Source: Deltaproteobacteria bacterium (lineage in GTDB: Bacteria > Desulfobacterota > GWC2-55-46). Taken from it: 64,000 nt of DNA. The position numbers and the translations under genes were made by a program. How positions within the stretch are numbered: the stretch's first letter is position 1; every line of letters begins with the position of its first letter. Location of the stretch: positions 87,922-151,921 of the forward strand of contig JACRNL010000004.1 of the NCBI GenBank assembly GCA_016234935.1. Direction: 5' to 3'. Of the stretch, positions 10,056 to 60,240 are shown piece after piece. The notes below the pieces were generated by a model that saw only the letters and a program-made list of their open reading frames with translations, was not told the origin of the DNA and made no database searches.

Positions 10056-11407
10056 TAAGCCATCGCCTCTTTAATCGTGGTCACGCCTATTATCTCGATG
10101 CCGCCTTTCACCTTGAGGCCCTTTAGATTGTCTTTCGGCATTATGCACCTTTTGAAGCCGAGCTTGGCGGCCTCCTTCACGCGCGGCTCCGCCTGATTTA
10201 CGCCCCTCACCTCTCCGGCAAGGCCGACCTCGCCGAAGATGACCGTCTTCGGGTCAACCGCTTTATCAAGGAAGTTCGACGCAAGGCTTGAGACAACGCC
10301 CAGATCCACGGCAGGCTCGTCAAGGCGTATGCCGCCGGCCACCTTTATGAAGATGTCGTGGTTGGCAAGGGTAATGCCCGCCTTTTTCTCGAGCACCGCA
10401 GCGAGGAGCATAACGCGGTTATAGTCCACGCCGACGACCGTCCTTCTGGGTATGCCGAAAATCGTCCGGCATACGAGAGACTGGACTTCAACGAGCACCG
10501 TCCTCGTGCCCTCAAGGCTCGACGTCACGGCGGAGCCGGAGGCGTCAACCGGCCGTGCGGCAAGGAATATCTCGGAAGGGTTCAGCACCTCGGCAAGGCC
10601 GCTCTCCTTCATCTCGAAGATGCCTATCTCCATGGCCGAGCCGAAGCGGTTTTTAACGGCGCGAAGTATCCTGAACTGGTGGCCCCGTTCGCCCTCGAAA
10701 TAAAGGACCGTGTCAACCATGTGCTCAAGGGCCTTTGGGCCGGCGATGTTGCCGTCCTTCGTGACGTGCCCCACGAGAAAGACAGGCACGTCCGTCTTTT
10801 TCGCGTATGTGATGAGGCTCGCGGCGACCTCCTTCACCTGGCTGAGGCTTCCCGGCGACGATTCGAAGGCCGCGCTGGCAAGCGTTTGCACGGAATCTAT
10901 GACAAGGACGCCGGGCTTTGTTTTCTTGAGCGCGTCGTGCGTCTTTTCAAGCGAAGTTTCCGCCAGGACAAGCAGGTTTTCGCTGAGCGCGCCGAGCCTC
11001 TCGCCGCGGAGCCTTATCTGCCGGAGCGACTCCTCGCCTGAGACGTAAAGCACCTTGTGGCCGCCGGCCGCCAGTGAGCCCATCGCCTGAAGGAGCAGCG
11101 TGGACTTGCCTATGCCCGGGTCGCCGCCGATAAGAACCGTTGACCCCGGCACCATGCCGCCGCCCAGAACGCGGTCGAACTCGCCGATATTCGTGCGCAC
11201 CCTGTCCTCTTCGGCCATGTCAAGGGTGGAGATGGCCTGGGGGAGGGCGTCCGTTTGCAGGGTATGCGGGCCTCCTTTTTCCTTGCGGTCAAAGACCCTT
11301 TCTTCCAGAAAGGAGTTCCATGAGCCGCAGTCCGGACACCTGCCGAGCCACCTGTAAGAGGCGTGTCCGCACGACTGGCACGTATAGATGGTCTTTTGCT
11401 TTGCCAT
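10046..11407 (-). CDS. radA: DNA repair protein RadA/Sms
   Basis: Zinc ribbon CQSCGH..CPDCGSW, Walker A GDPGIGKST, KNRFG motif, Lon-protease-like C-terminus. Start set at the ATG at 11405-11407 (MAKQKTIYTC). The track extension reads into the C2 repeats. Confidence 0.9.
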   Translation of the reverse strand: MAKQKTIYTCQSCGHASYRWLGRCPDCGSWNSFLEERVFDRKEKGGPHTLQTDALPQAISTLDMAEEDRVRTNIGEFDRVLGGGMVPGSTVLIGGDPGIGKSTLLLQAMGSLAAGGHKVLYVSGEESLRQIRLRGERLGALSENLLVLAETSLEKTHDALKKTKPGVLVIDSVQTLASAAFESSPGSLSQVKEVAASLITYAKKTDVPVFLVGHVTKDGNIAGPKALEHMVDTVLYFEGERGHQFRILRAVKNRFGSAMEIGIFEMKESGLAEVLNPSEIFLAARPVDASGSAVTSSLEGTRTVLVEVQSLVCRTIFGIPRRTVVGVDYNRVMLLAAVLEKKAGITLANHDIFIKVAGGIRLDEPAVDLGVVSSLASNFLDKAVDPKTVIFGEVGLAGEVRGVNQAEPRVKEAAKLGFKRCIMPKDNLKGLKVKGGIEIIGVTTIKEAMAYLF

Positions 11408-11419
11408 TGGTGTATTTAT

Positions 11420-11503
11420 GCCTGCCCCCGCGTGTCTGAAGCGGGGGCCTGCGCCCCCACGCGCCCCCCGCTTAAAACATGCTGGGACAAGCTGAAGCGG
11501 GGT
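11420..11503. repeat. cluster of family C units (C2)
   Basis: GCCTGCCCCCGCGTGTCTGAAGCGGGGGC (11420-11448), inverted CCCCCCGCTTAAAACATGC (11464-11482), and partial GCTGAAGCGGGG (11491-11502). Confidence 0.7.
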
Positions 11504-15446: not shown

Positions 15447-15501
15447 ATACCCTTACCTATATCAAATTAGCGCGCCGGTTGCAAGTCAATCCGTAAACTT
15501 A

Positions 15502-15590
15502 CCTTTCTTGAAAGAAAGGCGCTGCGCACGGCTAAAGTCAAAATACAACCCTTTAGCTTTGCCCTTCGCAGGTGCCCGAAGAACTTTAAT
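15502..15590 (+). repeat. family E element, copy E3
   Basis: Hairpin CCTTTCTTGAAAGAAAGG, then GCGCTGCGCACGGCTAAAGTCAAAATACAACCCTTTAGCTTTGCCCTTCGCAGGTGC..GAACTTTAAT. Confidence 0.8.
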
Positions 15591-15622: not shown

Positions 15623-15660
15623 ACAATAACTTCTAAATTCTATATTCTAACTCCTTTATG

Positions 15661-15848
15661 TGCGCCGCAATGACGAGCTACGAAAACAACGCGGTAGATG
15701 GGGCTTTTTCAGCAGCCTGACGGGCAGGCTGCTCAAAAAGCCCCAGCTACTAGGCGGCGAGGAGCGAAGAACGAGGCGTAGTGTGTCCTACGCCGCAGTG
15801 ATGAACGACGAAGGCAACGACGTAGATGGGGCTTTTTCAGCAGCCTGC
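15661..15848 (+). repeat. family A element, copy A3 (right half plus a full unit in tandem)
   Basis: The half unit (15661-15719) ends in GGGGCTTTTTCAGCAGCCTG. The full unit (15724-15848) runs GCAGGCTGCTCAAAAAGCCCC...GGGGCTTTTTCAGCAGCCTGC. Its last base is the first base of the CTA (TAG) stop of 15848..16642. Confidence 0.9.
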
Positions 15849-17199: not shown

Positions 17200-17267
17200 T
17201 TCCTCTTCTATGCTATAATACACCGTGAATGGACTTATTTCAAGGCGCTTGCAACGAAACTCGTAGT

Positions 17268-17346
17268 GCGAGCCCAGCACCACTTTCCGTCGCCAACATT
17301 TCTATCTGATATATATGCCGGTAACGGAAAGTGGTGCTGGGCTCGC
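17268..17346. repeat. family B inverted-repeat element, copy B1
   Basis: 23-nt perfect terminal inverted repeats GCGAGCCCAGCACCACTTTCCGT / ACGGAAAGTGGTGCTGGGCTCGC around a 33-nt A/T-rich core. Confidence 0.85.
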
Positions 17347-18331: not shown

Positions 18332-19219
18332 TCAAACCATTTCAATTATCCTCACAACGCTCTCTTCCTGACCGATGGCCATTATGTGGGCGCCGTGACA
18401 GAAGCCCTTTAACTCACGCACCTGACGCGCGGCTATCTCTATGCCTGCCTGAAGCTGATCTTTGGCGGATGAAAGCTCGTCTATCAAATTTTGCGGCACG
18501 TGGACGCCGGGGACGTTCTTGTTGAGGAAGCTTGCCATGTTCGCGGACTTTAAAAGCAGGATGCCGCCCAATATCTTCACGTCGTGCCTGGAGGCATAAT
18601 CGAAGAACCTCTTAAACCGCTCCATGTCGTATATCGCCTGCGTCTGGAAGAAACGCGCGCCTGCGGCTATCTTTTTCTCGAACTTCAGCTCCTCCGGCCC
18701 GAATGGGTTTGCCTCCGGCGCCACGACAGCGCCTATGAAAAAACCGGTCGCCCCGCGAAGCTCCACGCCGCTGAGGTTCTTGCCGCTGTTAAGGGTGCGT
18801 ATTGTCCCGACGAGCTGGACAGAGTCGAGGTCAAAGACGGCCTTCGCGTCGCGGTGGTCTCCGAAGGAGACGTGATCGCCGGTAAGGGCCAGTATGTTCC
18901 TTGCGCCCAGGACCCACGCGCCGAGGATGTCGGACTGGAGCGCGAGGCGGTTGCGGTCACGGCACGTCACCTGAAAGACCGGTTCTACACCCTCTTTTAA
19001 AAGGACAGCCGCGCAGGCAAGCGAGGAAAGGCGCATCACCGCCCGCTGGTTGTCCGTGACGTTCGCGGCGGTTATTTTGCCCTTTAAAAGGCGCGCCTTT
19101 TCAATGAAGACGGCGGTGTCCGTGCCCCTCGGCGGACATATCTCCGCCGTGATGACGAACCTTCCGGCCTCAAGCTGTTTTTGAAGATCGCTCTTTTGCA
19201 GAGCGTCATAACTTCGCAT
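18332..19219 (-). CDS. metF: methylenetetrahydrofolate reductase
   Basis: MTHFR-family length and sequence pattern (FVITAEICPPRG..; TGDH..). Start placed at the ATG at 19217-19219. The longer track ORF begins just beside repeat B2. Confidence 0.8.
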   Translation of the reverse strand: MRSYDALQKSDLQKQLEAGRFVITAEICPPRGTDTAVFIEKARLLKGKITAANVTDNQRAVMRLSSLACAAVLLKEGVEPVFQVTCRDRNRLALQSDILGAWVLGARNILALTGDHVSFGDHRDAKAVFDLDSVQLVGTIRTLNSGKNLSGVELRGATGFFIGAVVAPEANPFGPEELKFEKKIAAGARFFQTQAIYDMERFKRFFDYASRHDVKILGGILLLKSANMASFLNKNVPGVHVPQNLIDELSSAKDQLQAGIEIAARQVRELKGFCHGAHIMAIGQEESVVRIIEMV

Positions 19220-19277
19220 ACCTTCGTTGCTCCTCGGTTCGTCGCTGCGGCGCACGGGAAAAGTGCGCCTCACTTAT

Positions 19278-19375
19278 CCCCAGCACCACTTTCTGCTGCC
19301 AACGCCTGCCCTCGCATGTCTAAAGCGGGGGTTTGTATTATGCATGAACTCTTGGTGATGGAAAGTGGTGCTGGG
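19278..19375 (+). repeat. family B element, copy B2, carrying a family C unit
   Basis: Termini CCCAGCACCACTTTC / GAAAGTGGTGCTGGG. The interior equals the reverse complement of B3 plus a 27-nt insertion. Confidence 0.85.
19305..19331 (+). repeat. family C unit, copy C3 (nested in B2)
   Basis: CCTGCCCTCGCATGTCTAAAGCGGGGG lies between CCAACG and TTTGTATT, which are contiguous in copy B3. Confidence 0.8.
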
Positions 19376-19439
19376 CTCGGTCTGCTTTGTTCTGACGCTC
19401 CGTATGCGCATCTGCTTATGACGCTGTATATAATTCGCA

Positions 19440-22536: not shown

Positions 22537-22667
22537 CTGGCAGTCTCCTTAATTAAAAATCCCCCGTTGGCAGGCTTGAAACTATCGGGGGTAGCGGCAT
22601 TAAACGCCAATACTAATTTATAACAGAACCATGCGCATCTTTACAAGAAGGTTTTCCATCAGATTAT

Positions 22668-22718
22668 CGTTCCCACGCCTGCCCTCGCGTGTCTGAAGCG
22701 GGGGCAGGCGTGGGAACG
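22668..22718. repeat. family C unit with extended arms, copy C4
   Basis: CGTTCCCACGCCTGCCC-TCGCGTGTCTGAAGCG-GGGCAGGCGTGGGAACG, a 17-bp stem. It lies between atpD and purB. Confidence 0.8.
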
Positions 22719-23482: not shown

Positions 23483-24808
23483 TCACACCTCCGGCACCAT
23501 CTTCAAAAGCCTTTCGCCGAGGTCAAGGGTTTCGTCTATCGTCCTGTCGCTTTTGCCCTGTCCGGCAAATGACTGTTCAAATTCATCGGAAAATGAAAAA
23601 TACTTCTTGTCAGTATCGGTCAGCCCCTCTTCGCCGACTATGGCGATGAGGCGCCTTACGTCTATGCCGCGGGCGTAGGCTGAATAGAGCCTGTCGGCAA
23701 GCGCCCTGTGTCCGGCCCTTGTCTTTCCCTTGCCTATGCCGAGGTTCATAAGGCGCGACAGGCACGGCAGGACGTCTATGGGCGGATAGACGCCCTTTCT
23801 GTGGAGCGCGCGGCTTAGGACTATCTGGCCCTCGGTGATGTATCCTGTAAGGTCGGGTATCGGGTGCGTTATGTCGTCGTCGGGCATGGTCAGTATGGGC
23901 ACCATTGTTATAGAACCCTTCCGGCCTTTGAGCCTTCCTGCCCTTTCGTAGAGAGACGCAAGGTCTGTGTACATGTAACCCGGGTAGCTCCTTCTGCCGG
24001 GTATCTCCTCCCTCGCGCTGCCTATCTCGCGCAGGCAGTCGCAATAGGCGGTCATGTCGGTGAGGACGACCATAACGTGATAGCCGTGCTTAAAGGCCAG
24101 ATACTCGGCTGTGGTAAGGGCGATGCGCGGGGTAAAAAGCCTTTCTATTGTCGGGTCGCTCGCCTCGTTTATAAAGGCGACCGTCCGTTCCATTGCGCCG
24201 GACTCTTCAAGGGACTTTCTGAACGAAAAAGCCTCCCTTGAGGTTATGCCCATCGCGCCGAGGACTACGCAAAAATCCTCTTTCTCGGCGACCTTTGCCT
24301 GCGAGACTATCTGAAGGGCAAGCTCCTTTGCCGGAAGGCCGGCCCCTGAGAATATCGGGAGCTTTTGCCCGCGCACAAGCGTATTAAGGCCGTCTATGGC
24401 CGAGATTCCCGTCTGTATAAAAAAATCCGGCTTTTCACGTGAGGCCGGATTCATGGGCAGGCCGGCGGCGTCAATATATTCCTCCGGGATTATCGGCGGC
24501 AGGCCGTCTATGGGAAGGCCCAGACCGTCAAAGACCCTGCCAAAGACGTCTTTTGAAACGCCCACACGTGCAGGCTGTCCCGTCGGGATGACCGCCGCGC
24601 TCCTTGTGTCAATGCCCGAAGTCCCTTCGAGCACCTGTATGAGCGCGTGAGAGTCCGACAGCTCAAGTATCTGCCCCTGCCTCTTCCGGCCGTCAGAGAG
24701 CTGGATAAAGCACATCTCGCCAAGGCGCGCGCCCGCGATGTTGCCGGCGAATATAAGGCCGCCGGAAATGGCCGTGATGGTGCGGTATTCTCTTTTTATC
24801 AGATCCAT
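23483..24808 (-). CDS. atpB: V/A-type ATP synthase subunit B
   Basis: 441 aa, alpha/beta-ATPase fold without a canonical P-loop lysine-threonine motif ([10 protein letters not shown]). Confidence 0.9.
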
Positions 24809-24920: not shown

Positions 24921-25068
24921 GCAGGCTGCTCAAAAAGCCCCGGCTACTAGGCGGCGAGGCGCGAGAAACGAAGGCGTAATGGTAATTACGCCGTAGTGCC
25001 GAGCAACGAAGACAACGACGTAGATGGGGCTTTTCGGGGCACCCATGCGGAGCATGGGTCGGTCTGCC
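24921..25068 (+). repeat. family A element, copy A4, with its right arm replaced by a minor (G) unit
   Basis: GCAGGCTGCTCAAAAAGCCCCGGCTAC.. Central hairpin GGCGTAAT/ATTACGCC. After ..GATGGGGCTTTTC comes GGGGCACCCATGCGGAGCATGGGTCGGTCTGCC (25036-25068), the reverse complement of a unit at 58653-58681. It lies between atpA and atpB. Confidence 0.8.
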
Positions 25069-25069
25069 T

Positions 25070-26827
25070 CTAAACCCCGAACTCGGCCTTTATGCCGTCA
25101 ATAAGCGCCCCGGCCTCTTTTACAAAGACCTCGTTAGGCCAATTCTTCATGTTGATGACGCGCACGCGCAGCGTTGACTCCAGTATTTTTTCAAGATATG
25201 TGCCTTTTTTAAGCGCGGCCTCTGCGCTGTCGAGGAACGCGAAGATGACCTTCATCATCCAGTACTGCTTTTCATGCGTATTAAAGGCGTCGGCCTCGTT
25301 AAAGATGCTCTGCTTCAGAAACGTTTCATTCGTTATGAAGGCCGCCTCAAGCACGAGCCTGTCCTTTTCCTGCAGGGCCTCGACGCCGATTATCTGGACG
25401 ACCTCTTTAAGTTCCGCGTCCTTCTGGAGGAGCTTTAAAAGCCGCGCGCGAAGCCTCGGCATATCCGGAGCGACCTCTCTTGAAAGCCAGCCGGCAAGGT
25501 CTTCGTAATAGAGGCTGAAAGAGGACTGCCAGTTGACAGCCGGAAAGTGGCGTCTGTGCGCCAGCTCCGGGTCAAGCGCCCAGAACGCGCCGGCAAAACT
25601 GAGCGACGCCTGCGTGACAGGCTCCGAGAAGTCGCCGCCCGGCGGCGACACTGCGCTTACAACTGTAATGGAGCCGGTGAGGCCGTCCTCGCCGAGGCAT
25701 TGGACTCGTCCGGCCCTTTCATAAAAACCGCCCAGATGCGTGGCGAGATACGGCGGAAAGCCTTCCTCACCCGGCATCTCCTCAAGACGCGAAGAAATCT
25801 CCCTGAGCGCCTCTGCCCAGCGCGAGATGGAGTCCGCGAGAAGCGCGACGTTATAGCCCATGTCCCGATAGTATTCAGCGATGGTTATGCCTGTAAAGAT
25901 AGACGCCTCTCTGGCGGCCACCGGCATATTCGACGTATTGACGACGATGACCGTCCTAAAGCTGAGCGGCAGGCCCGTGTCCATCTCTTTTAACTCCGGA
26001 AAGTCCGACAGTATCTCGGTCATCTCGTTCCCGCGCTCTCCGCAGCCGACGTAGATGACTATGTCGCTCTTGCTGAGCTTGGCTATCGTCTGCTCGACGA
26101 TCGTCTTTCCGGTTCCAAAGCCGCCCGGCACGATGGCCGTGCCGCCCTCGGCCACCGGAAACAGCGTGTCAAAGACCCTCTGCCCGGTCACGAACGGGAC
26201 CACCGGCGGCAATTTCGCCTTAAAAGGCCTCGGCCTTCTCACGGGCCACTCTTCGTAAAGACCTATTGTCCTGCCGTCTTCAAGAACACATACCGGCTCC
26301 GTGCCCGTGACGCCGCCGGTCTTGATTTCCGATATAACGCCGCCCCCGCCTCCACCATTTAAATCCGGCGGCATCATCACTCTGTGGACGATGCGCCCGT
26401 TTCCAGCCACCGTGCCGATAACCATGCCCGGCTCCGCGCGGTCTCCCCGCCTTTTCAGCGGACTGAACGACCATACCCTTTTCAGGTCAATCGGCGCGAT
26501 CTTCAACCCCTTTGCAATAAAGTCCGTGCCGGCCTCTTTCATCCTGTCAAGCGGCCTCTGAATGCCGTCGAACGTGCCGCCAAGCAGGCCCGGGCCGAGG
26601 ACGACCATCAGGGGCTTGCCGCTGCTTACGACGTCCTCGCCGGCGGAAAGGCCGCCCGTGTCCTCATAGACCTGCAAGGTGGCCAGCTCCCCTTGTATGC
26701 GGATGACCTCGCCAAGCAGACCTTCTTTGCCCACGAGACAGACCGTATGCATGGCAACGCCGTCAAGCCCCTTTGCCACAACCGTCGGCCCTGTCACGCC
26801 GTATATCGCGCCTTTAAGTTTTTTCAT
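25070..26827 (-). CDS. atpA: V/A-type ATP synthase catalytic subunit A
   Basis: P-loop GGFGTGKT, 585 aa, including the non-homologous insert region typical of A subunits. Confidence 0.9.
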   Translation of the reverse strand: MKKLKGAIYGVTGPTVVAKGLDGVAMHTVCLVGKEGLLGEVIRIQGELATLQVYEDTGGLSAGEDVVSSGKPLMVVLGPGLLGGTFDGIQRPLDRMKEAGTDFIAKGLKIAPIDLKRVWSFSPLKRRGDRAEPGMVIGTVAGNGRIVHRVMMPPDLNGGGGGGVISEIKTGGVTGTEPVCVLEDGRTIGLYEEWPVRRPRPFKAKLPPVVPFVTGQRVFDTLFPVAEGGTAIVPGGFGTGKTIVEQTIAKLSKSDIVIYVGCGERGNEMTEILSDFPELKEMDTGLPLSFRTVIVVNTSNMPVAAREASIFTGITIAEYYRDMGYNVALLADSISRWAEALREISSRLEEMPGEEGFPPYLATHLGGFYERAGRVQCLGEDGLTGSITVVSAVSPPGGDFSEPVTQASLSFAGAFWALDPELAHRRHFPAVNWQSSFSLYYEDLAGWLSREVAPDMPRLRARLLKLLQKDAELKEVVQIIGVEALQEKDRLVLEAAFITNETFLKQSIFNEADAFNTHEKQYWMMKVIFAFLDSAEAALKKGTYLEKILESTLRVRVINMKNWPNEVFVKEAGALIDGIKAEFGV

Positions 26828-28811: not shown

Positions 28812-29021
28812 CTAACTCAGTATGAGATACGCCACGACAAAGCCCAATAGCGCCATGGTCTCAGGTATGGCGACCATTATGATGAACGTTCCCGACAGTT
28901 CCGGCTTTTCAGCCAGCGCGCCCGCGCCCGCAGTGCCTATCTTGCTCTGCGCCCACGCCGTGGCGAGCGCCGGACCCACGATTGCCAGCGCGGCCGATAA
29001 TGCGATGATAGCCTTTTCCAT
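28812..29021 (-). CDS. atpK: V/A-type ATP synthase proteolipid subunit K (c), single-hairpin form
   Basis: 69 aa with two transmembrane helices. Gly-rich helix 1 (GTAGAGALA). Carboxylate in helix 2 (IPETMAL). Confidence 0.85.
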   Translation of the reverse strand: MEKAIIALSAALAIVGPALATAWAQSKIGTAGAGALAEKPELSGTFIIMVAIPETMALLGFVVAYLILS

Positions 29022-29066
29022 GAAAAAACCTCCTTGAGTGTGTTAAAACGCGGTTTTTCTCCCGCG

Positions 29067-30947
29067 CTACCGCTTCCTGAACGGCGCGTACCTTCTCCCG
29101 CCTGCCTCGTAGAACTTGCCGAAGAACTCGACGTAGTGCAGCCTCATGGACTGGATGACAGGGCTTAGGAGGCAGAGCGCGATATTGACCAGGTGTATCA
29201 GCCCAGCGATGATTATGCCAAGGGCCGCGTTTTTCATCCTGCCGCCTATCTGATTGGCTACGTTGGCCATGACCACGCTCGCCGCGCCCACGGCCATGAG
29301 CCTCATGTACGAAAGCATGTTGCCCAGAGACTTTATCGACTCAAGCGGGCCGATAACTCCCTGGGCAAGCAAAAGAAAGGCAATGGCCGTCGCAAGCAGG
29401 ATAATCATCGGCAGGAAAAAAGCGCCGGGCAGATAGTCCCGCGACGCGGCGACCGCGGCGAAAAACGCGAAGATGGCCGCAAGCTGCGCGGCCTTTGCCC
29501 CGGCCTCCCTGTGCCTTTTTCTGCGCAGGTTATTCACCGCGCTGATGACAAGGCCGAAAACAACGTGGCCCGCGCCGATGCCGAGCGCGAGGAGAAGCAT
29601 CGTCTTCAAGGCCTCCTCCCTGTGAAACCAGACAGGATGCAGTATGCCGAGGCGCGCGCCGAGGTCGCCGAAGAACTCGCCGAACAAAAGGCCGAACACA
29701 ACGGCCCAGACTGAGCATATGGCAAGGATAGTAGAGACGTCGCGCAGGAAGGGCTTTGCGCTGAACCTTCTCCTGGCCCACAGGCCCAGAACTAAAAGCA
29801 CGGCGCCGTAGCCTGCATCCCCGACGATGAGGCCGAAAAACACCGGGAAAAAAAGCGCGAGAAACATCGTTGGGTCAACCGAACCGTAACGCGGCAGGGA
29901 CACGGCGGAAAGGAATACCTCAAAGGGCCTTATGGCGGGCCTGTTTTCAATGCAGACCGGCACGCGCCCGGCCTCTTCGCCGCCGATAGGGACGTCGCTT
30001 ACCAGCACCCTCTGTCCGTAAAGGCCGGAGAACCTGTCCTTTAACGCGGCGAGCTTCTCCGCCGGCAGATATCCTTCAAGCGCGAACGCGAAGCGCGACT
30101 CGGCCACATACGTCAGCGCGCCGGCCTCGTCAATGGCGTCCTCCACCGAACGCCGCAGCCCTTCTATCACGCCGTACCACCGCTTCGATATGCCTTCAAG
30201 TTCAGCCTCGGCCTGCCTTACGGCCTCAGGGATCGAATGCCTTTTCCTCCGCATCTCCTTCAGGGCGCCGACAAGCGCCATCTCCTCGTACTCGTCCGGC
30301 AGCCGTATCTCGCTAATCGACCTGCCCGTCAAAAGGCGCCTTATCTTTTCATCGAACTTATGCTGGAAGGCGATGACCACGCCTATTGTCGAGTCGTCAA
30401 GCTCGGCCGTCTGCATCTCATAAGTGCCGCCGGTAATCCTGACTATCTCGTCTTCAAGGAGCCTTATCGCGTCTGCCCTTCTCTTTTCAATTGTCAGGCC
30501 GACGATATCGAAATTGCCGAAACCGCCGAAGCGCGGGACTATCGGCAAAAACCCGCTCAAAAGCCTTTCGTATTTTTCGATGAGGGAGAGCGATTCTTTA
30601 AGCTCCTCAATGCGGGCATGAAGGGATTTGACCTTCGCCTCGACGTCCGCAAGCGCGTCAAGGCGGATGAATATCTCCGCGGCGTCCACCTTTTCAATCC
30701 TGTAAGATAGCGGCGGGGTAAGGAGCGACGACGCCTCCTTAAGGCGCACTATTGCCCTGTCAAGACGCTCCCTGCTCTCGGCCTTGTCCCTCTCAACGGG
30801 CAGCCTTTTCAGGAACGCGTCCTTGCCGGAAGCAACCGTCGGGGCCGTTTCAATGTGGACGACGGCCGTTTCGTGCAGCGTCCTGATGCAATCATCAAGC
30901 GCTGTTCTTGGCCCGATTATGCGGACTTTCGACATCACCTTTATCAT
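29067..30947 (-). CDS. atpI: V/A-type ATP synthase subunit I (a)
   Basis: Cytoplasmic coiled-coil N-terminal half plus a C-terminal half with ~7 transmembrane helices. Start set at MIKVMSKVRIIGP (ATG at 30945-30947). The track extension MTGVEPLQGAA is repeat D1 read in frame. Confidence 0.85.
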   Translation of the reverse strand: MIKVMSKVRIIGPRTALDDCIRTLHETAVVHIETAPTVASGKDAFLKRLPVERDKAESRERLDRAIVRLKEASSLLTPPLSYRIEKVDAAEIFIRLDALADVEAKVKSLHARIEELKESLSLIEKYERLLSGFLPIVPRFGGFGNFDIVGLTIEKRRADAIRLLEDEIVRITGGTYEMQTAELDDSTIGVVIAFQHKFDEKIRRLLTGRSISEIRLPDEYEEMALVGALKEMRRKRHSIPEAVRQAEAELEGISKRWYGVIEGLRRSVEDAIDEAGALTYVAESRFAFALEGYLPAEKLAALKDRFSGLYGQRVLVSDVPIGGEEAGRVPVCIENRPAIRPFEVFLSAVSLPRYGSVDPTMFLALFFPVFFGLIVGDAGYGAVLLVLGLWARRRFSAKPFLRDVSTILAICSVWAVVFGLLFGEFFGDLGARLGILHPVWFHREEALKTMLLLALGIGAGHVVFGLVISAVNNLRRKRHREAGAKAAQLAAIFAFFAAVAASRDYLPGAFFLPMIILLATAIAFLLLAQGVIGPLESIKSLGNMLSYMRLMAVGAASVVMANVANQIGGRMKNAALGIIIAGLIHLVNIALCLLSPVIQSMRLHYVEFFGKFYEAGGRRYAPFRKR

Positions 30948-30952
30948 CGCCG

Positions 30953-30975
30953 CCCCTTGAAGGGGTTCAACCCCC
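30953..30975. repeat. family D unit, copy D1
   Basis: CCCCTTGAAGGGGTTCAACCCCC. It contains the stop codon of the H/G subunit gene. Confidence 0.7.
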
Positions 30976-31293
30976 GTCAATGCCTTCCGTTATGAACTTA
31001 GCGGCCTGTCTTATCGCCGCTTCCATCTTCCGTCCGCCCTTTTCTTTTAAAGCCGCGGCCTCGCGCCCGGCGTCCTTTTCTATCTCCGCTATCTCTTTTT
31101 TGATATTGGCCTCAAACTCGGCGCCAAGGCGCCTGATCTCATCTTCAAGCGCCGCGAGGCCGGAGCCTCTTGCCTCGCCGGCCTTTCTGAGGGCGTCCTC
31201 CCTTATGAACGCGGCCCTGCTCCTTGCCCCTGCCACCAGGGCCTCCATCTCCTCTTCCTTGACCCTCAGCCTGTCAATGACATTATCCTGCAT
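30967..31293 (-). CDS. V/A-type ATP synthase peripheral-stalk subunit (H/G type)
   Basis: 108 aa, a single long Ala/Glu/Arg/Lys helix. First gene of the operon, as in archaeal ahaH. Confidence 0.6.
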   Translation of the reverse strand: MQDNVIDRLRVKEEEMEALVAGARSRAAFIREDALRKAGEARGSGLAALEDEIRRLGAEFEANIKKEIAEIEKDAGREAAALKEKGGRKMEAAIRQAAKFITEGIDGG

Positions 31294-31302
31294 GGCCGGT
31301 TC

Positions 31303-31704
31303 CTATCCCTTACTTTTTACGGTAACAAAGGCGCGAAGAGCGTCAAGCTTCGCGCCGCTGATATATTTAACGTTAAGAAGGCCGTCCGAGTTTTTAAAGC
31401 CGCCGCCCCGCGCCCTTTCCTCAAGGATACGCACGGCAGTCTTCTCGCCAACGCCTGGAAGCATCATCAGATCCTCTCGCGAGGCGGTATTAATGTCAAT
31501 TGGAAAGCCCGGGAATGCCGCAACCGGCGCCGCGGCGGCGCCTGGGCGCGACGCAGCAGCTTCTTTTGCAGAAACCGCAGGCATGAAGAGTTGCGAGATG
31601 GCTGCATATTCGGCGGTAATAAAAAAGACGGACAATAAAATCCCGGCAAGAAGTAAAAAAGCGGCGTATCTTTTGTCTTTAAGCCCGTCGCTTTCCCTGT
31701 TCAT
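31303..31704 (-). CDS. ComEA-like helix-hairpin-helix DNA-binding protein
   Basis: Transmembrane anchor, then DINTASREDLMMLPGVGEKTAVRILEER..GGF (tandem HhH). Confidence 0.7.
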   Translation of the reverse strand: MNRESDGLKDKRYAAFLLLAGILLSVFFITAEYAAISQLFMPAVSAKEAAASRPGAAAAPVAAFPGFPIDINTASREDLMMLPGVGEKTAVRILEERARGGGFKNSDGLLNVKYISGAKLDALRAFVTVKSKG

Positions 31705-31781
31705 ATGGAGGGCCTCTTTTTTTATTCGATCTTTACGGCAATTTTTCAGCTATGACGGATTTATTTCAACGCGGCCTTTTT

Positions 31782-31839
31782 GCGCCTGCGGCGGGCAAAG
31801 CTAAAGGTTTGTATTCAGGCTTTGGCAGCGCGCAGCGCC
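31782..31839 (-). repeat. family E element, copy E4 (diverged, no AACTTTAAT end)
   Basis: GCGCCTGCGGCGGGCAAAGCTAAAGGTTTGTATTCAGGCTTTGGCAGCGCGCAGCGCC. It contains the last seven codons and the stop of cimA. Confidence 0.7.
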
Positions 31840-33398
31840 TTCTTATCCTTGTAAAGTTTGTATTCAAGGCTGTCGGCAAGGGCCTGCCAGCTTGCCTCTA
31901 TGACGTTTTCAGACACGCCCACCGTGCCCCAGCGCTCTACGCCGTCGCCGGACTCCACAAGCACCCGCACCCTTGCGGCCGTGCCCTCCACGCCGCCAAG
32001 CACCCTGACCTTGAAGTCCAGTAGTTTCACCTCGCTGATGGACGGGTAAAATCTTTCAAGGGCTTTTCTAAGGGCCTTGTCGAGCGCGTTCACAGGGCCG
32101 TCGCCCTCGGCGGCGGTATGCTCGACCACGCCGCCGACCTCAAGCTTTATGGTCGCCTCCGCGAACGGGGCCTCGTCCTCTTTTTTCTTTTCGTCAATCA
32201 CGCGGAAACTCAGCAGACGGAAGTACCTTTCTCTTTTCTTCAGCGCCTTTTGCACGAGCAGCTCAAAGGACGCCTCCGCGCCTTCGTACTGGAAACCCTG
32301 ATGCTCAAGCGCCTTTATATCATGGAGGAGCTTTTGCACGACCTCGTCCTTGCTGGCAAGGTCAACGCCGAACTCGGCGGCCTTGTAGAGTATGTTCGAC
32401 CTGCCGGAAAGGTCAGACACCAATACCCTCTGGTGGTTGCCGACAAGCTCCGGCCTGATGTGCTCGTAGGTCTGCGGGCTTTTCAAGACCGCGCTTACGT
32501 GGATGCCGCCCTTATGCGCGAACGCGCTGTCGCCGACATAGGGCTGGCGCTTGAACTGCCGGACATTGGCAAGCTCGTAGACAAAGCGCGACGCCTCGCG
32601 GAGCTTTCTAAGACGCTCGTCCGTAATACAGTCAATTTTCATCTTCAGCTTCAACGCCGGAATTATCGAACATAGGTTGGCGTTCCCGCACCTTTCGCCA
32701 AAGCCGTTCATGGTGCCCTGCACCATGAACGCGCCCTCCTGGACCGCCGCGACAGTGTTGGCCACGGCCATATCCGAATCGTTATGCGCGTGAATGCCGA
32801 TGGCCGCCGGCGTCCGCATGCGCACCCTGCCGGTCATCCCGCCGACGTCTGACGGAAGCGACCCGCCGTTAGTGTCGCAAAGCACAACGCAGTCCGCGCC
32901 CGCGTCAATGGCCGCCCCAAGCGTCTTCATCGAATATTCAGGGTCGTCCTTGAAACCGTCGAAAAAATGCTCCGCGTCGAAAAAGACCTTATCAACCTTT
33001 GGCTTCAGGAACTTTATCGAGTCAAAGATCATCTCAAGGTTTTCCTTCAAAGGCACGCGAAGGGCCTTTTCCACATGGAGCTTCCATGTTTTGCCGACAA
33101 GCGTCACGCACGGCGCGCCGCTTGAAAGTAGCGCCTTTATGTTGGCGTCGTCCTTTGCCTTTACGCCTGAGCGCCGCGTTGAGCCGAAGGCCGCAAGCTT
33201 CGCGTTCTTCAGCTTACGCGAGCGCATGGCCTTAAAGAACTCTATATCGCGCGGGTTTGAACCCGGCCAGCCGCCCTCGATATAATGCATGCCGATGTCA
33301 TCAAGACAGTGCGCGATACGAATCTTATCCTCGACTGAAAAAGAAATCTCCTCAGCCTGCGCCCCGTCCCTCAATGTGGTGTCGTATAGTTTAAGCAT
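31815..33398 (-). CDS. cimA: (R)-citramalate synthase (2-isopropylmalate synthase family)
   Basis: [18 protein letters not shown], and a C-terminal LeuA-dimer regulatory domain. 527 aa with a Geobacter-type CimA-like N-terminus. CimA versus LeuA cannot be settled without an alignment. Confidence 0.7.
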
Positions 33399-35409: not shown

Positions 35410-35535
35410 GCAGGCTGCTCAAAAAGCCCCAGCTACTAGGCGACGAGGAGCGAAGAATGTAGGCGTAATGCTAATTACGCCGTAATGATGAGCTTTGATG
35501 CCAACGACGTAGATGGGGCGCTTGAGGCAGCCTGC
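35410..35535 (+). repeat. family A element, copy A5
   Basis: GCAGGCTGCTCAAAAAGCCCCAGCTAC .. GGCGTAAT/ATTACGCC .. GTAGATGGGGCGCTTGAGGCAGCCTGC. Its last base begins the CTA (TAG) stop of lpdA. Confidence 0.85.
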
Positions 35536-49594: not shown

Positions 49595-50131
49595 CTATTT
49601 TTCAGGCAGACCAAGCCAGGCTAAGGGCAAGGTATTGAACTTGTAGTGGCAATTCATGCTATGGATGTAATCCAGCACATCCTTGTAAACAGGATTTTTG
49701 AACCAATCGTTGAGTACGTAAACATACTCGACCTTAATACCCAATGAAACAACTAACTTGAGATACTGCTTTCTTTTGAAATCGCAAGTCTGAAGTTTTT
49801 CGTCTACTGAACCGGCAACTTGTTGCCACTTCACTTCGATAATATACAACGTTTCTCGCACAATGACCAGCAATGCATCATCAGGAAGAAGCTTTTTTGA
49901 AATTAGTTTTTTCCAATCAATAGAGTGCTCCTCAAGATATTGGTAAAACTCGTGCTTCTTGAAGCAATGTGCGACCAAGACATCATTAAAAAAAACACCA
50001 TTCCCTGCCTTCCCCGTAATCTTCTTTATATGATATCCCGTTATCTTTTTAAGCAAAGTTAAAAAATCGGCTTCTTTTTCAAACCTTAAACCAGTCAAGG
50101 TAGTTGCGCCACCCACTCCGCCTGTTTTCAT
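49595..50131 (-). CDS. type II restriction endonuclease candidate (PD-(D/E)xK)
   Basis: 178 aa, looks AT-rich. LLPDDALLVIV..LYIIEVKW fits PD...(E)xK. Lies directly downstream of the methyltransferase. Confidence 0.55.
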   Translation of the reverse strand: MKTGGVGGATTLTGLRFEKEADFLTLLKKITGYHIKKITGKAGNGVFFNDVLVAHCFKKHEFYQYLEEHSIDWKKLISKKLLPDDALLVIVRETLYIIEVKWQQVAGSVDEKLQTCDFKRKQYLKLVVSLGIKVEYVYVLNDWFKNPVYKDVLDYIHSMNCHYKFNTLPLAWLGLPEK

Positions 50132-50199
50132 ATCTTTGCCTTTTAATCATGTAAAATTAAAACTTTCTTAAGGAGGTGTTCATTTTTGCTTTTTATTCC

Positions 50200-51159
50200 T
50201 TAAGCAGTCTTGTGCAGTTTTGATACGGACGGCTTTTTTATTGCCTCTTCAATACGCTTCTTGGAAAGTTCCAAATAACCCTCCTCCGAATCTATGCCAA
50301 CATATTTTCTATTCAATAGCATTGCCGCGACTCCGGTCGTTGAACTTCCACAAAATGGGTCCAGTATCAGATCGCCATCTTTTGTAGACGCAAGAATTAT
50401 TCTCCTTAACAATTCAAGAGGTTTTTGTGTAGGATGTTTGCCGAAATGCTTTTCATCCGCTAATGGCGCAGAGATCGTCCAGACATTTTCAGCGGTTTGC
50501 TTCTCATCCGCCTCATTGAAGTGCCACAAATTCCTCATCTGCTTCCCGTGATTAGCTTCCTTCATGAGCGGGTAATTAAAGTAGTGTTTACTTTTATTGT
50601 TCTTGGCCGCCCACAAAACTATTTCCGTGGAATGAGTAAAATAACGGCAGGACAGGTTTGGCGGGGCATTGCGTTTATACCAAACAATATCGTTTAGTAT
50701 TTTAAAACCATTTTGCTGCATGGCAAAACCAACGGAATAAATAACATGAGTAGTTCCTGATACCCAGATCGTGCCATTGGGTCTCAAAACACGCTGACAT
50801 GCCTTGAGCCATTCGCGATTAAACTCGTGATCCTCTTCCAGCCCTTTGGATTTATCCCATTTACCCTTATTAACGGAAACCATCTTGCCCGCATGACAGG
50901 TAATCCCGCCATTTGAAAGAAAATATGGCGGGTCGGCAAAGATCATATCAACGCTATTTTCCCTTGCCTGATTCAAAGTCTTGATACAATCGCCTTTGAG
51001 CAGCTTAACAGAATGGCTGGGATTATCGTAATAAAGGCTGTATGGTTTTTGCGTGCCATAGCCCACTGTTTCTTCAGAAATATAAAAATCAAGCGGTTCG
51101 CCGGAAACGGTATATTCGATTTCCTTTTTTACCGTTTTTTTGATTCTTTTTCCGCTCAT
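50200..51159 (-). CDS. beta-class N6-adenine/N4-cytosine DNA methyltransferase
   Basis: Motif IV IFADPPYF lies N-terminal and motif I DPFCGSSTTG lies C-terminal, which is the beta-class permutation (PF01555 type). Confidence 0.85.
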   Translation of the reverse strand: MSGKRIKKTVKKEIEYTVSGEPLDFYISEETVGYGTQKPYSLYYDNPSHSVKLLKGDCIKTLNQARENSVDMIFADPPYFLSNGGITCHAGKMVSVNKGKWDKSKGLEEDHEFNREWLKACQRVLRPNGTIWVSGTTHVIYSVGFAMQQNGFKILNDIVWYKRNAPPNLSCRYFTHSTEIVLWAAKNNKSKHYFNYPLMKEANHGKQMRNLWHFNEADEKQTAENVWTISAPLADEKHFGKHPTQKPLELLRRIILASTKDGDLILDPFCGSSTTGVAAMLLNRKYVGIDSEEGYLELSKKRIEEAIKKPSVSKLHKTA

Positions 51160-51160
51160 A

Positions 51161-51409
51161 TTAACCGTTTTTATTGGAATTTATACCTTTTAGCAGATCG
51201 GCAGGTTTTACATTCAACGCGTCAGAAATCTTGAAAAGCACTTTCAGCGAGGGATACCTTAAGCCACGCTCAATCTGACCAACATAGCTCGTATGTATGT
51301 CGGCAAGCTCAGCCAATGACTCTTGAGTAATCTTTTTATGCTCTCTCAGTTTTTTTATGGATGAGCCGATGATGAAGCATCTAACGTCGTTTGAGAGTTT
51401 TTTGCTCAT
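51161..51409 (-). CDS. controller (C) protein, XRE-family HTH
   Basis: MSKKLSNDV..ITQESLAELADIHTSYVGQIERGLRYPSLKVL. Its stop lies 1 nt before the methyltransferase ATG. Start set at the ATG at 51407-51409. The track extension covers the putative operator. Confidence 0.7.
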   Translation of the reverse strand: MSKKLSNDVRCFIIGSSIKKLREHKKITQESLAELADIHTSYVGQIERGLRYPSLKVLFKISDALNVKPADLLKGINSNKNG

Positions 51410-51448
51410 GTGTGGGGAGTATAACTTGTTACAAATAATATCTGAAGA

Positions 51449-51475
51449 GACTATATGTAATAACAACATTTAGTC
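51449..51475 (-). promoter_or_regulatory. C-box-like operator candidate
   Basis: GACTATATGT-N7-ACATTTAGTC (10-nt inverted repeat, one mismatch), about 40 nt upstream of the C-gene ATG. Confidence 0.5.
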
Positions 51476-51553: not shown

Positions 51554-51678
51554 GCAGGCTGTTCAAAAAGCCACAGTTACAAGGCGGCAAGGCGCGAGGA
51601 ACGAGGCGTATTTTTGGATACCCCGCAGTGACGAGCAACGCGGACAACGCGGTAGATGGGGCTTTTTGAGCAGCCTGC
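51554..51678 (+). repeat. family A element, copy A6 (more diverged)
   Basis: GCAGGCTGTTCAAAAAGCCACAGTTAC ... GGTAGATGGGGCTTTTTGAGCAGCCTGC. It ends 2 nt before the TAG of era. Confidence 0.8.
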
Positions 51679-52580: not shown

Positions 52581-52645
52581 TTTTCACCTCACACTGCACA
52601 ATAGCATCCCGAAAAAACAAAGTCCACCTGCCTTTTTTGAAACCT

Positions 52646-52733
52646 ACCTTTTTTGAAAAAAAGGTGCTGCGCACGGCTAAAGCCAAAATGCAACCCTTCA
52701 GCTTTGCCCACCGCAGGTGCCAAAAAACTTTAA
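52646..52733 (+). repeat. family E element, copy E5
   Basis: Hairpin ACCTTTTTTGAAAAAAAGGT, then GCTGCGCACGGCTAAAGCCAAAATGCAACCCTTCAGCTTTGCCCACCGCAGGTGC..AAACTTTAAT. Confidence 0.8.
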
Positions 52734-52767
52734 TTTTCCCTGCTGGAATCTGTATTGCTGACGGGAA

Positions 52768-57648: not shown

Positions 57649-58449
57649 TTACAGCACGTCGGCGAATTCGGACTTCAGCTTCCGGAATACAAAACCGCCG
57701 GCAACGAAGAACATGAGGCTGACGCCCCAGAAATACGCGCCCATCCCGTAGTCCTGCCAGAACGGCTTGCCGTAGATGAAGGAATTCTGATAGCCGTCAA
57801 CTATGTAAAACATCGGGTTCAGCCTCATGAAGGGGCGGAGCCTCTCTGGAAGCATGTCTATGACCCACGCAATCGGCGTCAGCCAGAACCAGACGTTCAG
57901 AATAACCCCAAGCACCTGCCCCGTGTCGCGGTAAAAGACGTTTATCGCCGCGAAAAACCAGCTCAGGCCGAGGCTGAAGACGGAGAGCGCGAAAAGGTAG
58001 TAGAAGAACTGCAGGTTCAGGAGCGAAAATTTTATGCCGTTGAAAAAAAGAAGCGCGAGGAGTATCCCCAGCATTATGCAGTGGATTATGAGGCTTGCGG
58101 CAAGGTTTATCACGGGGAGTATCTCCGTCGGAAAGACCATCTTCGTGACGAGGTGGCTGTTGGCCACCACGGAATTGGCGCCGAGGATCATGCATTCGCT
58201 GAAGGTCATCCACGGGATGAGGCCGGCGGAAAAGACCACTATGAACGGCACGCCTCCCACGGGCTGCACCCTGAAGCCCACGGAAAAGACGAGCCAGTAG
58301 ACCGCGACCGTGATAATCGGATTGACGACCGACCAGAGAAAACCGGCGAACGTGCCGGCGTAGCGGCTTGACACCTCGTGGGCCGCCATGGCCGTTATGA
58401 CCGAGCGGTTTGCATAGAGCCGCGCCAGAAATCTATAAAACCTTGTCAT
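57649..58449 (-). CDS. ABC-2 type exporter permease (Wzm/KpsM/TagG-like)
   Basis: 266 aa with six transmembrane helices and an ABC-2 family pattern. No ATPase gene adjacent. Confidence 0.75.
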   Translation of the reverse strand: MTRFYRFLARLYANRSVITAMAAHEVSSRYAGTFAGFLWSVVNPIITVAVYWLVFSVGFRVQPVGGVPFIVVFSAGLIPWMTFSECMILGANSVVANSHLVTKMVFPTEILPVINLAASLIIHCIMLGILLALLFFNGIKFSLLNLQFFYYLFALSVFSLGLSWFFAAINVFYRDTGQVLGVILNVWFWLTPIAWVIDMLPERLRPFMRLNPMFYIVDGYQNSFIYGKPFWQDYGMGAYFWGVSLMFFVAGGFVFRKLKSEFADVL

Positions 58450-58652
58450 GAATGCACCTGTTTTCGCGGGGAGAGCCTTGAGGGTTGCTAAGGTTCGGGG
58501 ATGATGGAGACTGCTCTGCCTACAATTATCCTCTGTTTTTCTGTTTTGTCAAGCAGACCGATAGAGGCAATAAAAAAGGCGGTCTTTGAGATACCGGCCG
58601 CCTTGAGACTTAAATACATTAAGAAGTTGCGGAAAAACTCAAAATCTGGTCA

Positions 58653-58681
58653 GGCCGACCCATCCGAAGGATGGGTGCCCC
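58653..58681. repeat. minor (G) palindromic unit
   Basis: GGCCGACCCATCCGAAGGATGGGTGCCCC. It matches the reverse complement of 25036-25068. Confidence 0.6.
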
Positions 58682-58717
58682 GAATCTTCCCATTGCAATA
58701 ATAAAGACGCAATGGGA

Positions 58718-58855
58718 ACCCAGCCAGATGCAAGGCGTCGAGCCCAGCACCACTTTCCATCGCCAAGAGTTCATGCATAATACAAACGTTGGCAGAGGAA
58801 AGTGGTGCTGGGGAGGAACGAGGACGCCGCAGATGGGGCTTTTTCAGCAGCCTGC
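58718..58855 (+). repeat. family A element, copy A7 (degraded, interrupted by B3)
   Basis: ..CCAGATGCAAGGCGTCGAG [B3] GAGGAACGAGGACGCCGCAGATGGGGCTTTTTCAGCAGCCTGC. The left arm is missing and there is an internal deletion. Confidence 0.75.
58743..58812 (-). repeat. family B element, copy B3 (nested in A7)
   Basis: CCCAGCACCACTTTCC ... GGAAAGTGGTGCTGGG (16-nt perfect terminal inverted repeats). The interior is the reverse complement of the B2 interior. Confidence 0.85.
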
Positions 58856-58875
58856 TAACGGGACTGTTATCCCGC

Positions 58876-60240
58876 CTATGTTATCTCGCCTATGATATCG
58901 TAATCTTCCGCGCCGGTGACGAGCACCTCCGCCATCGTGCCCGGCAGCGCCATGCCTTTTGTTATGCAGACAGCGCCGTCTACGTCGGGGGCCTGCGAGG
59001 AGGCCCTGCCTTTAAGCCTGCCCTCGCGTGCCTGAAGCGGGGGGACGTATCCATCTCCCCCGGCCTCCGCCTCGCCGCCCTCTATGAGCGTTTTTATCCG
59101 TCGGCCTATCAGCATTTCGTTCTTTTCAAGGGAAATGGCGCGCTGCGCCTGCATCAGGATATCCATCCTTTCGGCCTTTACCTTTGCGGAAACCTGTTTT
59201 TCAAGGTTGAATGCGGGCGTGCCCTCCTCACGCGAATACGTAAAAACGCCGAGCCTGTCAAAACGCGCGTCCTCTATAAAGGACAGGAGCTCTTTGAACT
59301 CCTTATCCGTCTCGCCGGGAAAACCGGCTATCAAGGAAGTCCTGAGCGTCACGCCGCCGACTTCCTTTCTCAGCTTTTCTATGACGGCTTCGATGTCCCT
59401 TCGCGCATACCGCCTGTTCATGGCCTTTAAAACCCGCTCGCTGATGTGCTGAAGCGGCAGGTCTATGTAGCTGACTATCTTCTCCTCGCCCTTCATGACG
59501 GAGATAAGCTCGTCGGTTATCTTGCCGGGATACAGATACAGGAGCCTTATCCATTCTATTCCATCGACGCGGACAAGGGCGCGAAGGAGCCTGATCAGCT
59601 CTCCGCCGCGCTCGAAACCGTATGACGTGGTGTCCTGCGCGATAAGGTTTATCTCCTTTACGCCCTGCCCCGCGAGCGAGGCGGCCTCCCTTACCACGGA
59701 CTCAACGCTCCTTGACCTCATCTCCCCCCGTATCGCAGGGATGGAGCAGTAACTGCAATGGTTAGAGCAGCCCTCGGCCACCTTCACGTAGGCGTAATAC
59801 GAGGGGGTGGACAGCAGCCTCGGGGTGTCGTAGTCGTGGATATACGTCGGCAGGCCTACGAGCACCCTCCGGGTAAAGCCGTCTTTTATGACCTCCGCTA
59901 TCCTGTGGTATTCGCCTGTGCCGACAAAGCAGTCAACCTCAGGCATCTCCTTTGCCAGTTCGTCCTTGTACCGCTGAGAGAGGCATCCGGTGACGACGAG
60001 CCGGGAGCATCTTCCGGCCTTTTTGTTCTTGGCAAGGGCCAGTATGGCGTCTATGGACTCCTCCTTCGCGTCATTGATGAAGCCGCAGGTGTTGACGATG
60101 ATGACGTCGGCGTCCGCGGCTTCAGGGGTTATCTCGGCCCCTGATTCCTTCAATATCCCCAGCATGACCTCCGAGTCCACGAGGTTCTTGGAACAGCCCA
60201 GGCTTACGAGGCAGACCTTCTTTGTTTGCGATGCAGACAT
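58876..60240 (-). CDS. rimO: ribosomal protein S12 methylthiotransferase RimO
   Basis: UPF0004 N-terminus (VSLGCSKNLVDSE), radical SAM CSNHCSYC, C-terminal TRAM domain (APDVDGAV). Confidence 0.85.
   Translation of the reverse strand: MSASQTKKVCLVSLGCSKNLVDSEVMLGILKESGAEITPEAADADVIIVNTCGFINDAKEESIDAILALAKNKKAGRCSRLVVTGCLSQRYKDELAKEMPEVDCFVGTGEYHRIAEVIKDGFTRRVLVGLPTYIHDYDTPRLLSTPSYYAYVKVAEGCSNHCSYCSIPAIRGEMRSRSVESVVREAASLAGQGVKEINLIAQDTTSYGFERGGELIRLLRALVRVDGIEWIRLLYLYPGKITDELISVMKGEEKIVSYIDLPLQHISERVLKAMNRRYARRDIEAVIEKLRKEVGGVTLRTSLIAGFPGETDKEFKELLSFIEDARFDRLGVFTYSREEGTPAFNLEKQVSAKVKAERMDILMQAQRAISLEKNEMLIGRRIKTLIEGGEAEAGGDGYVPPLQAREGRLKGRASSQAPDVDGAVCITKGMALPGTMAEVLVTGAEDYDIIGEIT
59016..59047. 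repeat. family C unit, copy C7, inside the rimO coding sequence
   Basis: GCCTGCCCTCGCGTGCCTGAAGCGGGGGGACG. Compare the units at 22668-22718 and 40767-40799. Confidence 0.7.

Follow-up and report, generated by a model that had tools for sequence, protein, structure and literature searches.

Between rimO and an ABC-2 permease gene, a copy of one short repeat, here called family A, is broken by a complete unit of another, family B. The question raised by this locus is whether B entered an A copy that was already in place, and what kinds of element the two are. The locus belongs to a stretch of 64,000 nt (the window) from an uncultured Thermodesulfobacteriota ('Deltaproteobacteria') genome, and the composite has the stop codon of rimO (58876-60240, minus strand) on one side and the promoter-like site of the permease gene (57649-58449) on the other. 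The 60 ORFs of the window were identified as housekeeping genes by a Pfam scan, with no match to a transposase, an integrase or a Y1 transposase among them, in keeping with a preliminary description made from the sequence alone, which had reported no transposase, integrase or RAYT gene in this window. An exact match to the window RimO was not on record in a protein sequence look-up; the closest RimO in the protein collection, that of contig L225, is 82% identical, and a RimO-anchored scan of genome contigs returned only relatives of 67% identity or less.

Two other features of the window were observed. A low-GC island (0.43) at 49595-51469 has the look of a restriction-modification module, as it encodes a PD-(D/E)XK nuclease together with an N6/N4 DNA methylase and an HTH protein. 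Another family of repeats, ~60 nt long (GCACCTGCGGTG..GCAAAGCTAAA..GCGCAGCGCC), occurs in both orientations at 8156-8214, 9994-10059, 15498-15575, 31782-31847 and 52640-52745, and a similar repeat is found downstream of rimO in L225.

The interruption can be read directly at 58743-58812, where the 70-nt insert is, as first described, a complete family B unit bounded by perfect 16-nt terminal inverted repeats. The junctions run ..GCAAGGCGTCGAG, then CCCAGCACCACTTTCC...GGAAAGTGGTGCTGGG (the B unit), then GAGGAACGAGG.., and downstream of the last base of B at 58812 the A sequence continues as GAGGAACGAGGACGCCGCAGATGGGGCTTTTTCAGCAGCCTG. Copy 5857-5978 is contiguous across the insertion point (GTCGAGGAGCGAGG), as had been pointed out, and 58724-58854 is recovered as one A copy spanning the insert by an HMM made from 17 A copies (E = 3.8e-9). 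The B unit is predicted to fold into a hairpin of -25.9 kcal/mol (z = -8.0). The parts of the locus (58623-58858) and the uninterrupted copy used for comparison are as follows:

58623-58640, plus strand: putative remnant of the outer left end of A (GAAGTTGCGGAAAAACTC), by comparison only with CAGGTTGCGGAAAAACTC in L297
58651-58684, plus strand: variant left end of the A copy, comprising CAGGC, a small hairpin termed 'J' (CGACCCATCCGAAGGATGGGTGCC) and CCGAA
58685-58718, plus strand: 34-nt hairpin module termed 'I' (TCTTCCCATTGCAATAATAAAGACGCAATGGGAA) in the left end of the A copy, also present in L123 and L269
58719-58742, plus strand: body of A to the left of B (CCCAGCCAGATGCAAGGCGTCGAG), approximately A-model positions 19-37
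58743-58812, plus strand: family B unit of 70 nt nested in family A, with ends CCCAGCACCACTTTCC and GGAAAGTGGTGCTGGG and a 38-nt interior
58813-58854, plus strand: body of A (GAGGAACGAGG) and right terminal repeat (ACGCCGCAGATGGGGCTTTTTCAGCAGCCTG), restarting at A-model position 42
58855-58858: CTAA, directly after the right end of the interrupted A copy
5857-5978, plus strand: contiguous A copy, nearest relative of the interrupted copy (E = 3.3e-32)

The two halves of A around B are not both intact, as A-model positions 38-41 (GAGC) are absent at the junction. The left arm of this copy had been described as lost, and simple loss does not fit what is found there: an alternative arm is present at 58651-58684, with the likely outer-end remnant at 58623-58640. 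In the repeat survey 58651-58684 is complementary to 25024-25066, and the 'J' hairpin also interrupts the A end at the right end of copy 24922-25066; L285, L294 and L310 have this module at the equivalent point of A. The internal deletion reported between two ACGCCGCAG repeats is real but larger than proposed, covering 39 model positions (53-91) and taking both the central hairpin and the sequence between the repeats. No target-site duplication accompanies the B insert; the preliminary description had seen no unambiguous one.

With these corrections, the proposed order of events, in which B moved or was copied after A was in place, is supported by the A halves that flank B and by the uninterrupted state of the closest A relative. 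An exact empty allele of the 58742/58813 junction was not found; the contig of the closest RimO relative (82% identical) is 3.2 kb long, has different repeats downstream of rimO and ends 187 nt past the gene. The unit at 58743-58812 is a non-autonomous hairpin element that entered an already present and already decaying A copy. Taken as a whole, the best explanation of the locus, which we hold to be probable though by no means certain, is that B is nested in an older A, that A is an IS5-type MITE and that B was mobilised in trans without target duplication.

Family A is a MITE of ~123 nt whose 20-nt ends (CAGGCTGCTC/GAAAAAGCCCC) are those of an IS5-family insertion sequence duplicating CTAR targets. 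Besides the interrupted copy, the census by repeat survey and HMM gave the following in the window:

3327-3449: full A copy (HMM)
5857-5978: full A copy (HMM)
15725-15847: full A copy (HMM)
24922-25034: full A copy (HMM)
35411-35534: full A copy (HMM)
51555-51677: full A copy (HMM)
15656-15719: right half of A (HMM census)
19223-19278, other strand: A fragment (E = 6.7e-4)

Seven of the nine window copies or fragments are without B, which, together with the uninterrupted closest relative 5857-5978, upholds the earlier view that B is not a constant part of A. All window A copies have one orientation and lie directly 3' of minus-strand genes. The copy at 24922-25066 was observed between the genes for the V-type ATPase A subunit (25070-26827) and B subunit (23483-24808); given this position inside an operon, A is probably not a strong terminator.

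The assignment to the IS5 family came from a search for insertion sequences with matching ends, which the preliminary description had suggested and which succeeded for A. Species-representative genomes of many phyla have the 21-nt A end (GGGGCTTTTTCAGCAGCCTGC) at 46 loci, where ~0.3 would be expected by chance by our own estimate. The same ends bound elements of 1305-1311 bp in Rhodopila and other Acetobacteraceae (L273, L311, L292, L303), with termini CAGGCTGCTGAAAAA(C/G)CCC and 4-bp duplications of CTAG (L311) and CTAA (L292). A 384-codon open frame is present in L273, L311 and L292, and that of L311, taken from its first Met (360 aa), scores 262 bits against the NCBIfam IS5-family model NF033581 (cut-off 140) and also matches Pfam DUF772 and DDE_Tnp_1. 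Short A-like elements of ~120-147 nt were identified in MAGs labelled Deltaproteobacteria, Nitrospirota/Nitrospira, Candidatus Binatia, Candidatus Sulfotelmatobacter, Bryobacteraceae, Omnitrophota and Phycisphaerales, some of them with matching CTAA, CTAC or CTAG flanks. When the outer left end is counted, the MITE flanks are CTAA/CTAA in L275, CTAC/CTAC in L288 and CTAG/CTAG in L308; in the window copies only the right flank is CTAA or CTAC and the left flanks do not match. A main group, comprising elements from Deltaproteobacteria, Nitrospirota/Nitrospira, Sulfotelmatobacter and some Binatia, has a common architecture and a central hairpin with compensatory changes.

The presence of A also varies between relatives. 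In L241, which is 80-85% identical to window 28909-33059, a tandem of A and an A::B composite forms an insert of ~340 nt, and the window is empty at the corresponding site between 31312 and 31313. This tandem (L241 1700-2040) was observed to consist of one A that has B and, in its right arm, an additional small hairpin, and another A with a C-like hairpin (family C is described below); the insert alters the last codons of an HHH-motif gene (window 31303-31704). Family A would have been moved by an IS5-type DDE transposase supplied in trans, and such activity may be current in this lineage.

Two other readings of family A were considered and rejected. A small ORF in one frame of A (..DGAFSAAC*) was discarded, as stops and non-synonymous changes differ between copies. 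A structured RNA gene, suggested by the compensatory changes in the central hairpin, was set aside in view of the multiple copies, the IS5 ends and the variable presence. Palindrome-templated correction can also yield compensatory changes. No Rfam match at gathering score was obtained anywhere in the window, with only chance-level matches covering A and B, and a literature search with the end sequences of both returned no relevant paper.

The end of family B recurs in the window in a very regular manner. The 15-mer CCCAGCACCACTTTC occurs exactly six times, as three inverted pairs (17273/17327, 19279/19361 and 58743/58798), and allowing up to 3 mismatches raises the number of matches to 7, which 0 of 100 shuffles reached. 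The two further B sites given in the preliminary description correspond to the units 17273-17341 and 19279-19375, of which the first is free of A:

17273-17341, plus strand: family B unit outside A, in a REP-like hairpin with GTAGTGCGAG at 17263-17272 and CTCGC at 17342-17346

Wider searches with a single 16-mer arm gave mostly chance matches, and a two-arm gapped pattern was used instead. By this approach B was found in 36 genome loci, mainly of NC_groundwater Deltaproteobacteria and Thermodesulfobacteriota MAGs, and in 40 metagenome contigs, sediment contigs among them, giving 84 unique copies after removal of duplicates. The modal length is 65-68 nt, with perfect terminal inverted repeats of 16-17 nt, a variable interior of ~35 nt and no ORF, and the predicted hairpins have 16-23 bp with z = -8 to -11 against shuffles. 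The interiors form subtypes that are ~50-60% identical to one another and 80-100% identical within. Conservation of the arms against a variable interior is partly built in here, as the pattern demanded perfect 12-mers in both arms. Support free of this bias is limited to two samples: all three window copies have perfect 16-mers though the interiors of 17273 and 58743 are 63% identical, and the partner arms of copies from the single-arm search have 0-1 mismatch in 16. B-like hairpins from Peribacillus, Ureibacillus, Lachnospiraceae and Vogelbacteria share only 12-mers with B and were taken as chance or unrelated. Individual loci were also observed. At L066 4748-4815 a B copy lies in frame in a 781-codon ORF with an SLT-type transglycosylase motif and encodes AQHHFPAPFLLPSTDTPMESGAG. 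The B copies at L067 2383-2447 and L116 6398-6463, both picked by the perfect-arm requirement, occupy corresponding positions of two MAGs with identical arms, while their interiors and flanks have diverged and the flanking genes are only 68-73% identical.

That B occurs on its own, as had been proposed, is evident both from 17273-17341 and from a check for the A arm motif run on the flanks of 51 copies, most of which have none. No flanking direct repeat is present in 64 of the 84 copies, and 18 of the other 20 have no more than a 2-base GC match at their ends. In 14 of the 84 copies (~0.3 expected) the flanks add four or more complementary bases, which indicates that B often sits in the middle of a palindrome. 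In L251 and L244 it lies between partial B arms.

Evidence that B moves comes from comparison of filled and empty sites in related contigs, much as had been envisaged. Metagenome contigs of Ga0315281, 80-93% identical to parts of the window, differ from it in the presence of both A and B. In the 83%-identical contig L250 the hairpin at the site of window B 17273 is whole (GTAGTGCGAGACTTTAGTCTCGC), and the window B takes the place of its 8-nt apex; ~60 nt upstream, where the window is uninterrupted, L250 has a B copy of its own. A B copy in L231 corresponds to a family C doublet in the window, and L062 lacks, in the matching gap, a B copy that is present in L141. B is a separate element whose sites differ between relatives, which makes no duplication, at whose sites target bases are lost and which favours hairpins. 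The hairpin that hosts the window B at 17273 was observed to be a REP-like unit (GTAG, a 7-8-bp stem and a 4-nt loop; GTAGTGCGAGRCTTYAGYCTCGC), present at L250 1590-1612 and in L266 near 220-242 (minus strand).

A second composite of A and B was found in the window, on the other strand, at 19209-19394:

19209-19278, minus strand: A fragment abutting B (nhmmer E = 6.7e-4), with 19278 corresponding to A-model position 42
19279-19375, minus strand: second family B unit, of 97 nt, in a degenerate A::B composite, differing from 58743-58812 at 3 of 70 nt apart from a family C insert
19376-19394, minus strand: degenerate left part of A, its reverse complement CAGAACAAAGCAGACCGAG matching CAGATGCAAGGCGTCGAG by eye at ~13 of 18 positions

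The base next to B is again A-model position 42 (GAGGAATGAGGCG), the same right junction as at 58813, and positions 38-41 of the model are absent in both window composites. Four more composites were identified in related contigs (L253, L235, L241 and L245), each with the B subtype of its own genome. Both junctions of L253 are the same as in the window composite, and in L235, L241 and L245 the right junction is the same and the left junction is at model position 29 rather than 37. One preferred site of B lies in A, just 5' of GAGGAAYGAGGCG.

A fixed right junction could also be produced if A::B were a composite subtype of A, in which B entered once, long ago, and the whole was then copied by the IS5-type transposase or by duplication, with no insertion at 58743 itself. 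Such a history would account for the junction at position 42 in all six composites and for the identical relative orientation of B and A in the two window copies, and it has a parallel in the 'J' hairpin, which in several genomes likewise keeps to a single position in A. It sits badly with the divergence of the parts: the B units of the two window composites are 96% identical and the adjoining A sequences only ~60-65% identical. In Ga0315281 the B copies inside A are 87-97% identical in their interiors to B copies in unrelated context, and only ~50% identical to the window B, so that interiors match other B copies of the same genome and not the composites of other genomes. The left junction varies (29 against 37), L253 and L241 have B in different orientations with respect to A, and the nearest A relative, 5857-5978, has no B. 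We regard a propagated composite, in which B was later overwritten or converted, as the chief rival, possible but rather unlikely. Because the divergence of B and A is unequal, each genome has its own B subtype, and left junction and orientation vary, the evidence suggests repeated insertion of B at a preferred site in A.

It was also considered whether B might not be mobile at all, being instead a hairpin used by the host, for example as a binding site for a protein or as a structure in RNA or DNA, which selection retains and recombination spreads or makes uniform. The very stable predicted hairpins would agree with this, as would the pair L067/L116, where the arms are identical between genes of 68-73% identity and the interior has diverged; that pair, however, was picked by the perfect-arm requirement. 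Relatives that are 80-93% identical differ in the presence of B, which occurs in many unrelated contexts and once in frame in a gene, and no Rfam family matches it; a host-used hairpin is accordingly improbable. A chimeric join of short repeats during metagenome assembly, a process in which repeats often break or mis-join short-read contigs and which several related contigs ending inside these repeats might bring to mind, is hardly credible here, given that L253, L241, L235 and L245, from independent assemblies and projects, have the same architecture, that the window has it twice with different flanks, and that the A halves run on correctly on either side of B.

The nesting at the second composite goes one level further, as its B unit holds in its loop a hairpin of a third family, C:

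19305-19331, plus strand: family C hairpin of 27 nt (CCTGCCCTCGCATGTCTAAAGCGGGGG), in the loop of the B unit 19279-19375
59017-59043, plus strand: family C copy of 27 nt, in frame in rimO (58876-60240, minus strand)

The hairpin at 19305-19331 is C inside B inside A. The copy in rimO adds about nine residues (PPLQAREGR) to the loop before the TRAM-domain motif and has no counterpart in the 82%-identical RimO of L225 or in six other homologues that were aligned. Two more occurrences of C were observed in the window: an inverted doublet at 11421-11492, and a copy at 22678 (22666-22716) placed at the apex of a longer palindrome (TTCCCACG...CGTGGGAA), a hairpin-in-hairpin arrangement like that of B.

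As to how B might move, it would be mobilised in trans by an enzyme that recognises the conserved ends and acts without staggered cuts. The sites that B occupies tend to be the tips or other unpaired segments of existing hairpins (those of a REP-like unit, of A and even of partial B arms), and 4-12 target bases are replaced. The lack of a duplication and the hairpin targets lead us to propose, as a best guess, a single-strand, hairpin-dependent mechanism of the IS200/IS605-RAYT kind (PMC3337134); another recombinase that leaves no duplication would be the alternative. The search for an insertion sequence with matching ends, successful for A, gave none for B: among the retrieved loci there was no long element or insertion sequence bounded by B ends and no multicopy coding repeat, and a motif scan of all of them, a crude test, detected no RAYT gene. 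B was likewise absent from plasmids (BLAST) and viral contigs (scan). It is conceivable, if doubtful, that B represents an undescribed class of non-autonomous hairpin elements which insert in the tips or loops of hairpins (REPs, IS5-type MITEs, other B copies), and occasionally in frame in coding sequence, by a single-strand or hairpin-dependent enzyme or a non-duplicating recombinase, and which by overwriting a few bases build ordered hairpin-in-hairpin mosaics.

Several known systems resemble parts of this picture. REPINs are doublets of REP sequences that form hairpins and are mobilised by RAYT tyrosine transposases (Bertels & Rainey; PMC3337134). They share with B two conserved inverted ends of ~16 nt, a poorly conserved spacer and the hairpin fold, and also the range of tens to hundreds of copies, the mostly intergenic location, the lack of target duplication and a long persistence. 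However, each REP unit of a REPIN holds an imperfect palindrome (PMC3337134), and by direct reading the B arm CCCAGCACCACTTTCC has none. With no RAYT gene in any retrieved sequence, the link of B to a Y1 transposase is by analogy only. A 5' GTAG is known from REP/RAYT systems, and this motif is not evident in the ends of B.

MITEs derived from insertion sequences (PMC3184786, PMC10969869) are like A in their IS5-family terminal repeats, matching 4-bp CTAR flanks in some copies from other genomes, lack of an ORF, stable fold and variable presence between relatives. They are like B in their terminal inverted repeats and small size, but B has no target-site duplication and no parent insertion sequence was found for it. 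A differs from a typical lineage-specific MITE in keeping interior motifs as well as ends across phyla, and is in this respect more like elements of the ERIC/IRU type.

For the nesting, the closest parallels are the insertion of IS1111 into QMITE2 in Coxiella (PMC5896051) and the use of REPs as target sites by insertion sequences (PMC3184786), where, as here, an element lands repeatedly at a fixed place in a small palindromic repeat and the host copies decay; the incomer in those cases is an autonomous insertion sequence with its own transposase, whereas here it is a non-coding hairpin of 70 nt. Mosaic clusters of small repeats, and small repeats within genes, are known from the BIMEs of E. 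coli, the BOX, RUP and SPRITE elements of pneumococci and the palindromic elements of Rickettsia (PMC3184786). These resemble the present case in that several short hairpin families share one intergenic site and in that genes carry in-frame insertions (C in rimO and B in the SLT-like gene). They have no sequence in common with A, B or C, and the three levels of nesting, with C within B within A and precise junctions, show more order than the juxtaposition seen in BIMEs. Nested and mosaic small repeats, insertion of IS elements into REPs and MITEs, and in-frame repeat insertions are thus already known (PMC3184786, PMC5896051, PMC3337134), and nested selfish DNA is a known kind of event; the two families are undescribed and their host is an uncultured groundwater or sediment bacterium. 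What is unusual in B is the lack of a duplication, the replacement of hairpin tips and the recurrent site in A.

The nested repeats give the order of events, with A preceding B and B preceding C. No fewer than three systems of small repeats have been at work in this uncultured Thermodesulfobacteriota lineage, and they have reshaped the 3' ends of genes, an operon spacer and the reading frame of rimO. The ends of A, common to IS5-type elements and MITE-like copies in many phyla, make a useful marker for annotation. If B does target hairpins without making a duplication, this would suggest mobilisation by an enzyme that has so far not been connected with elements of this sort.
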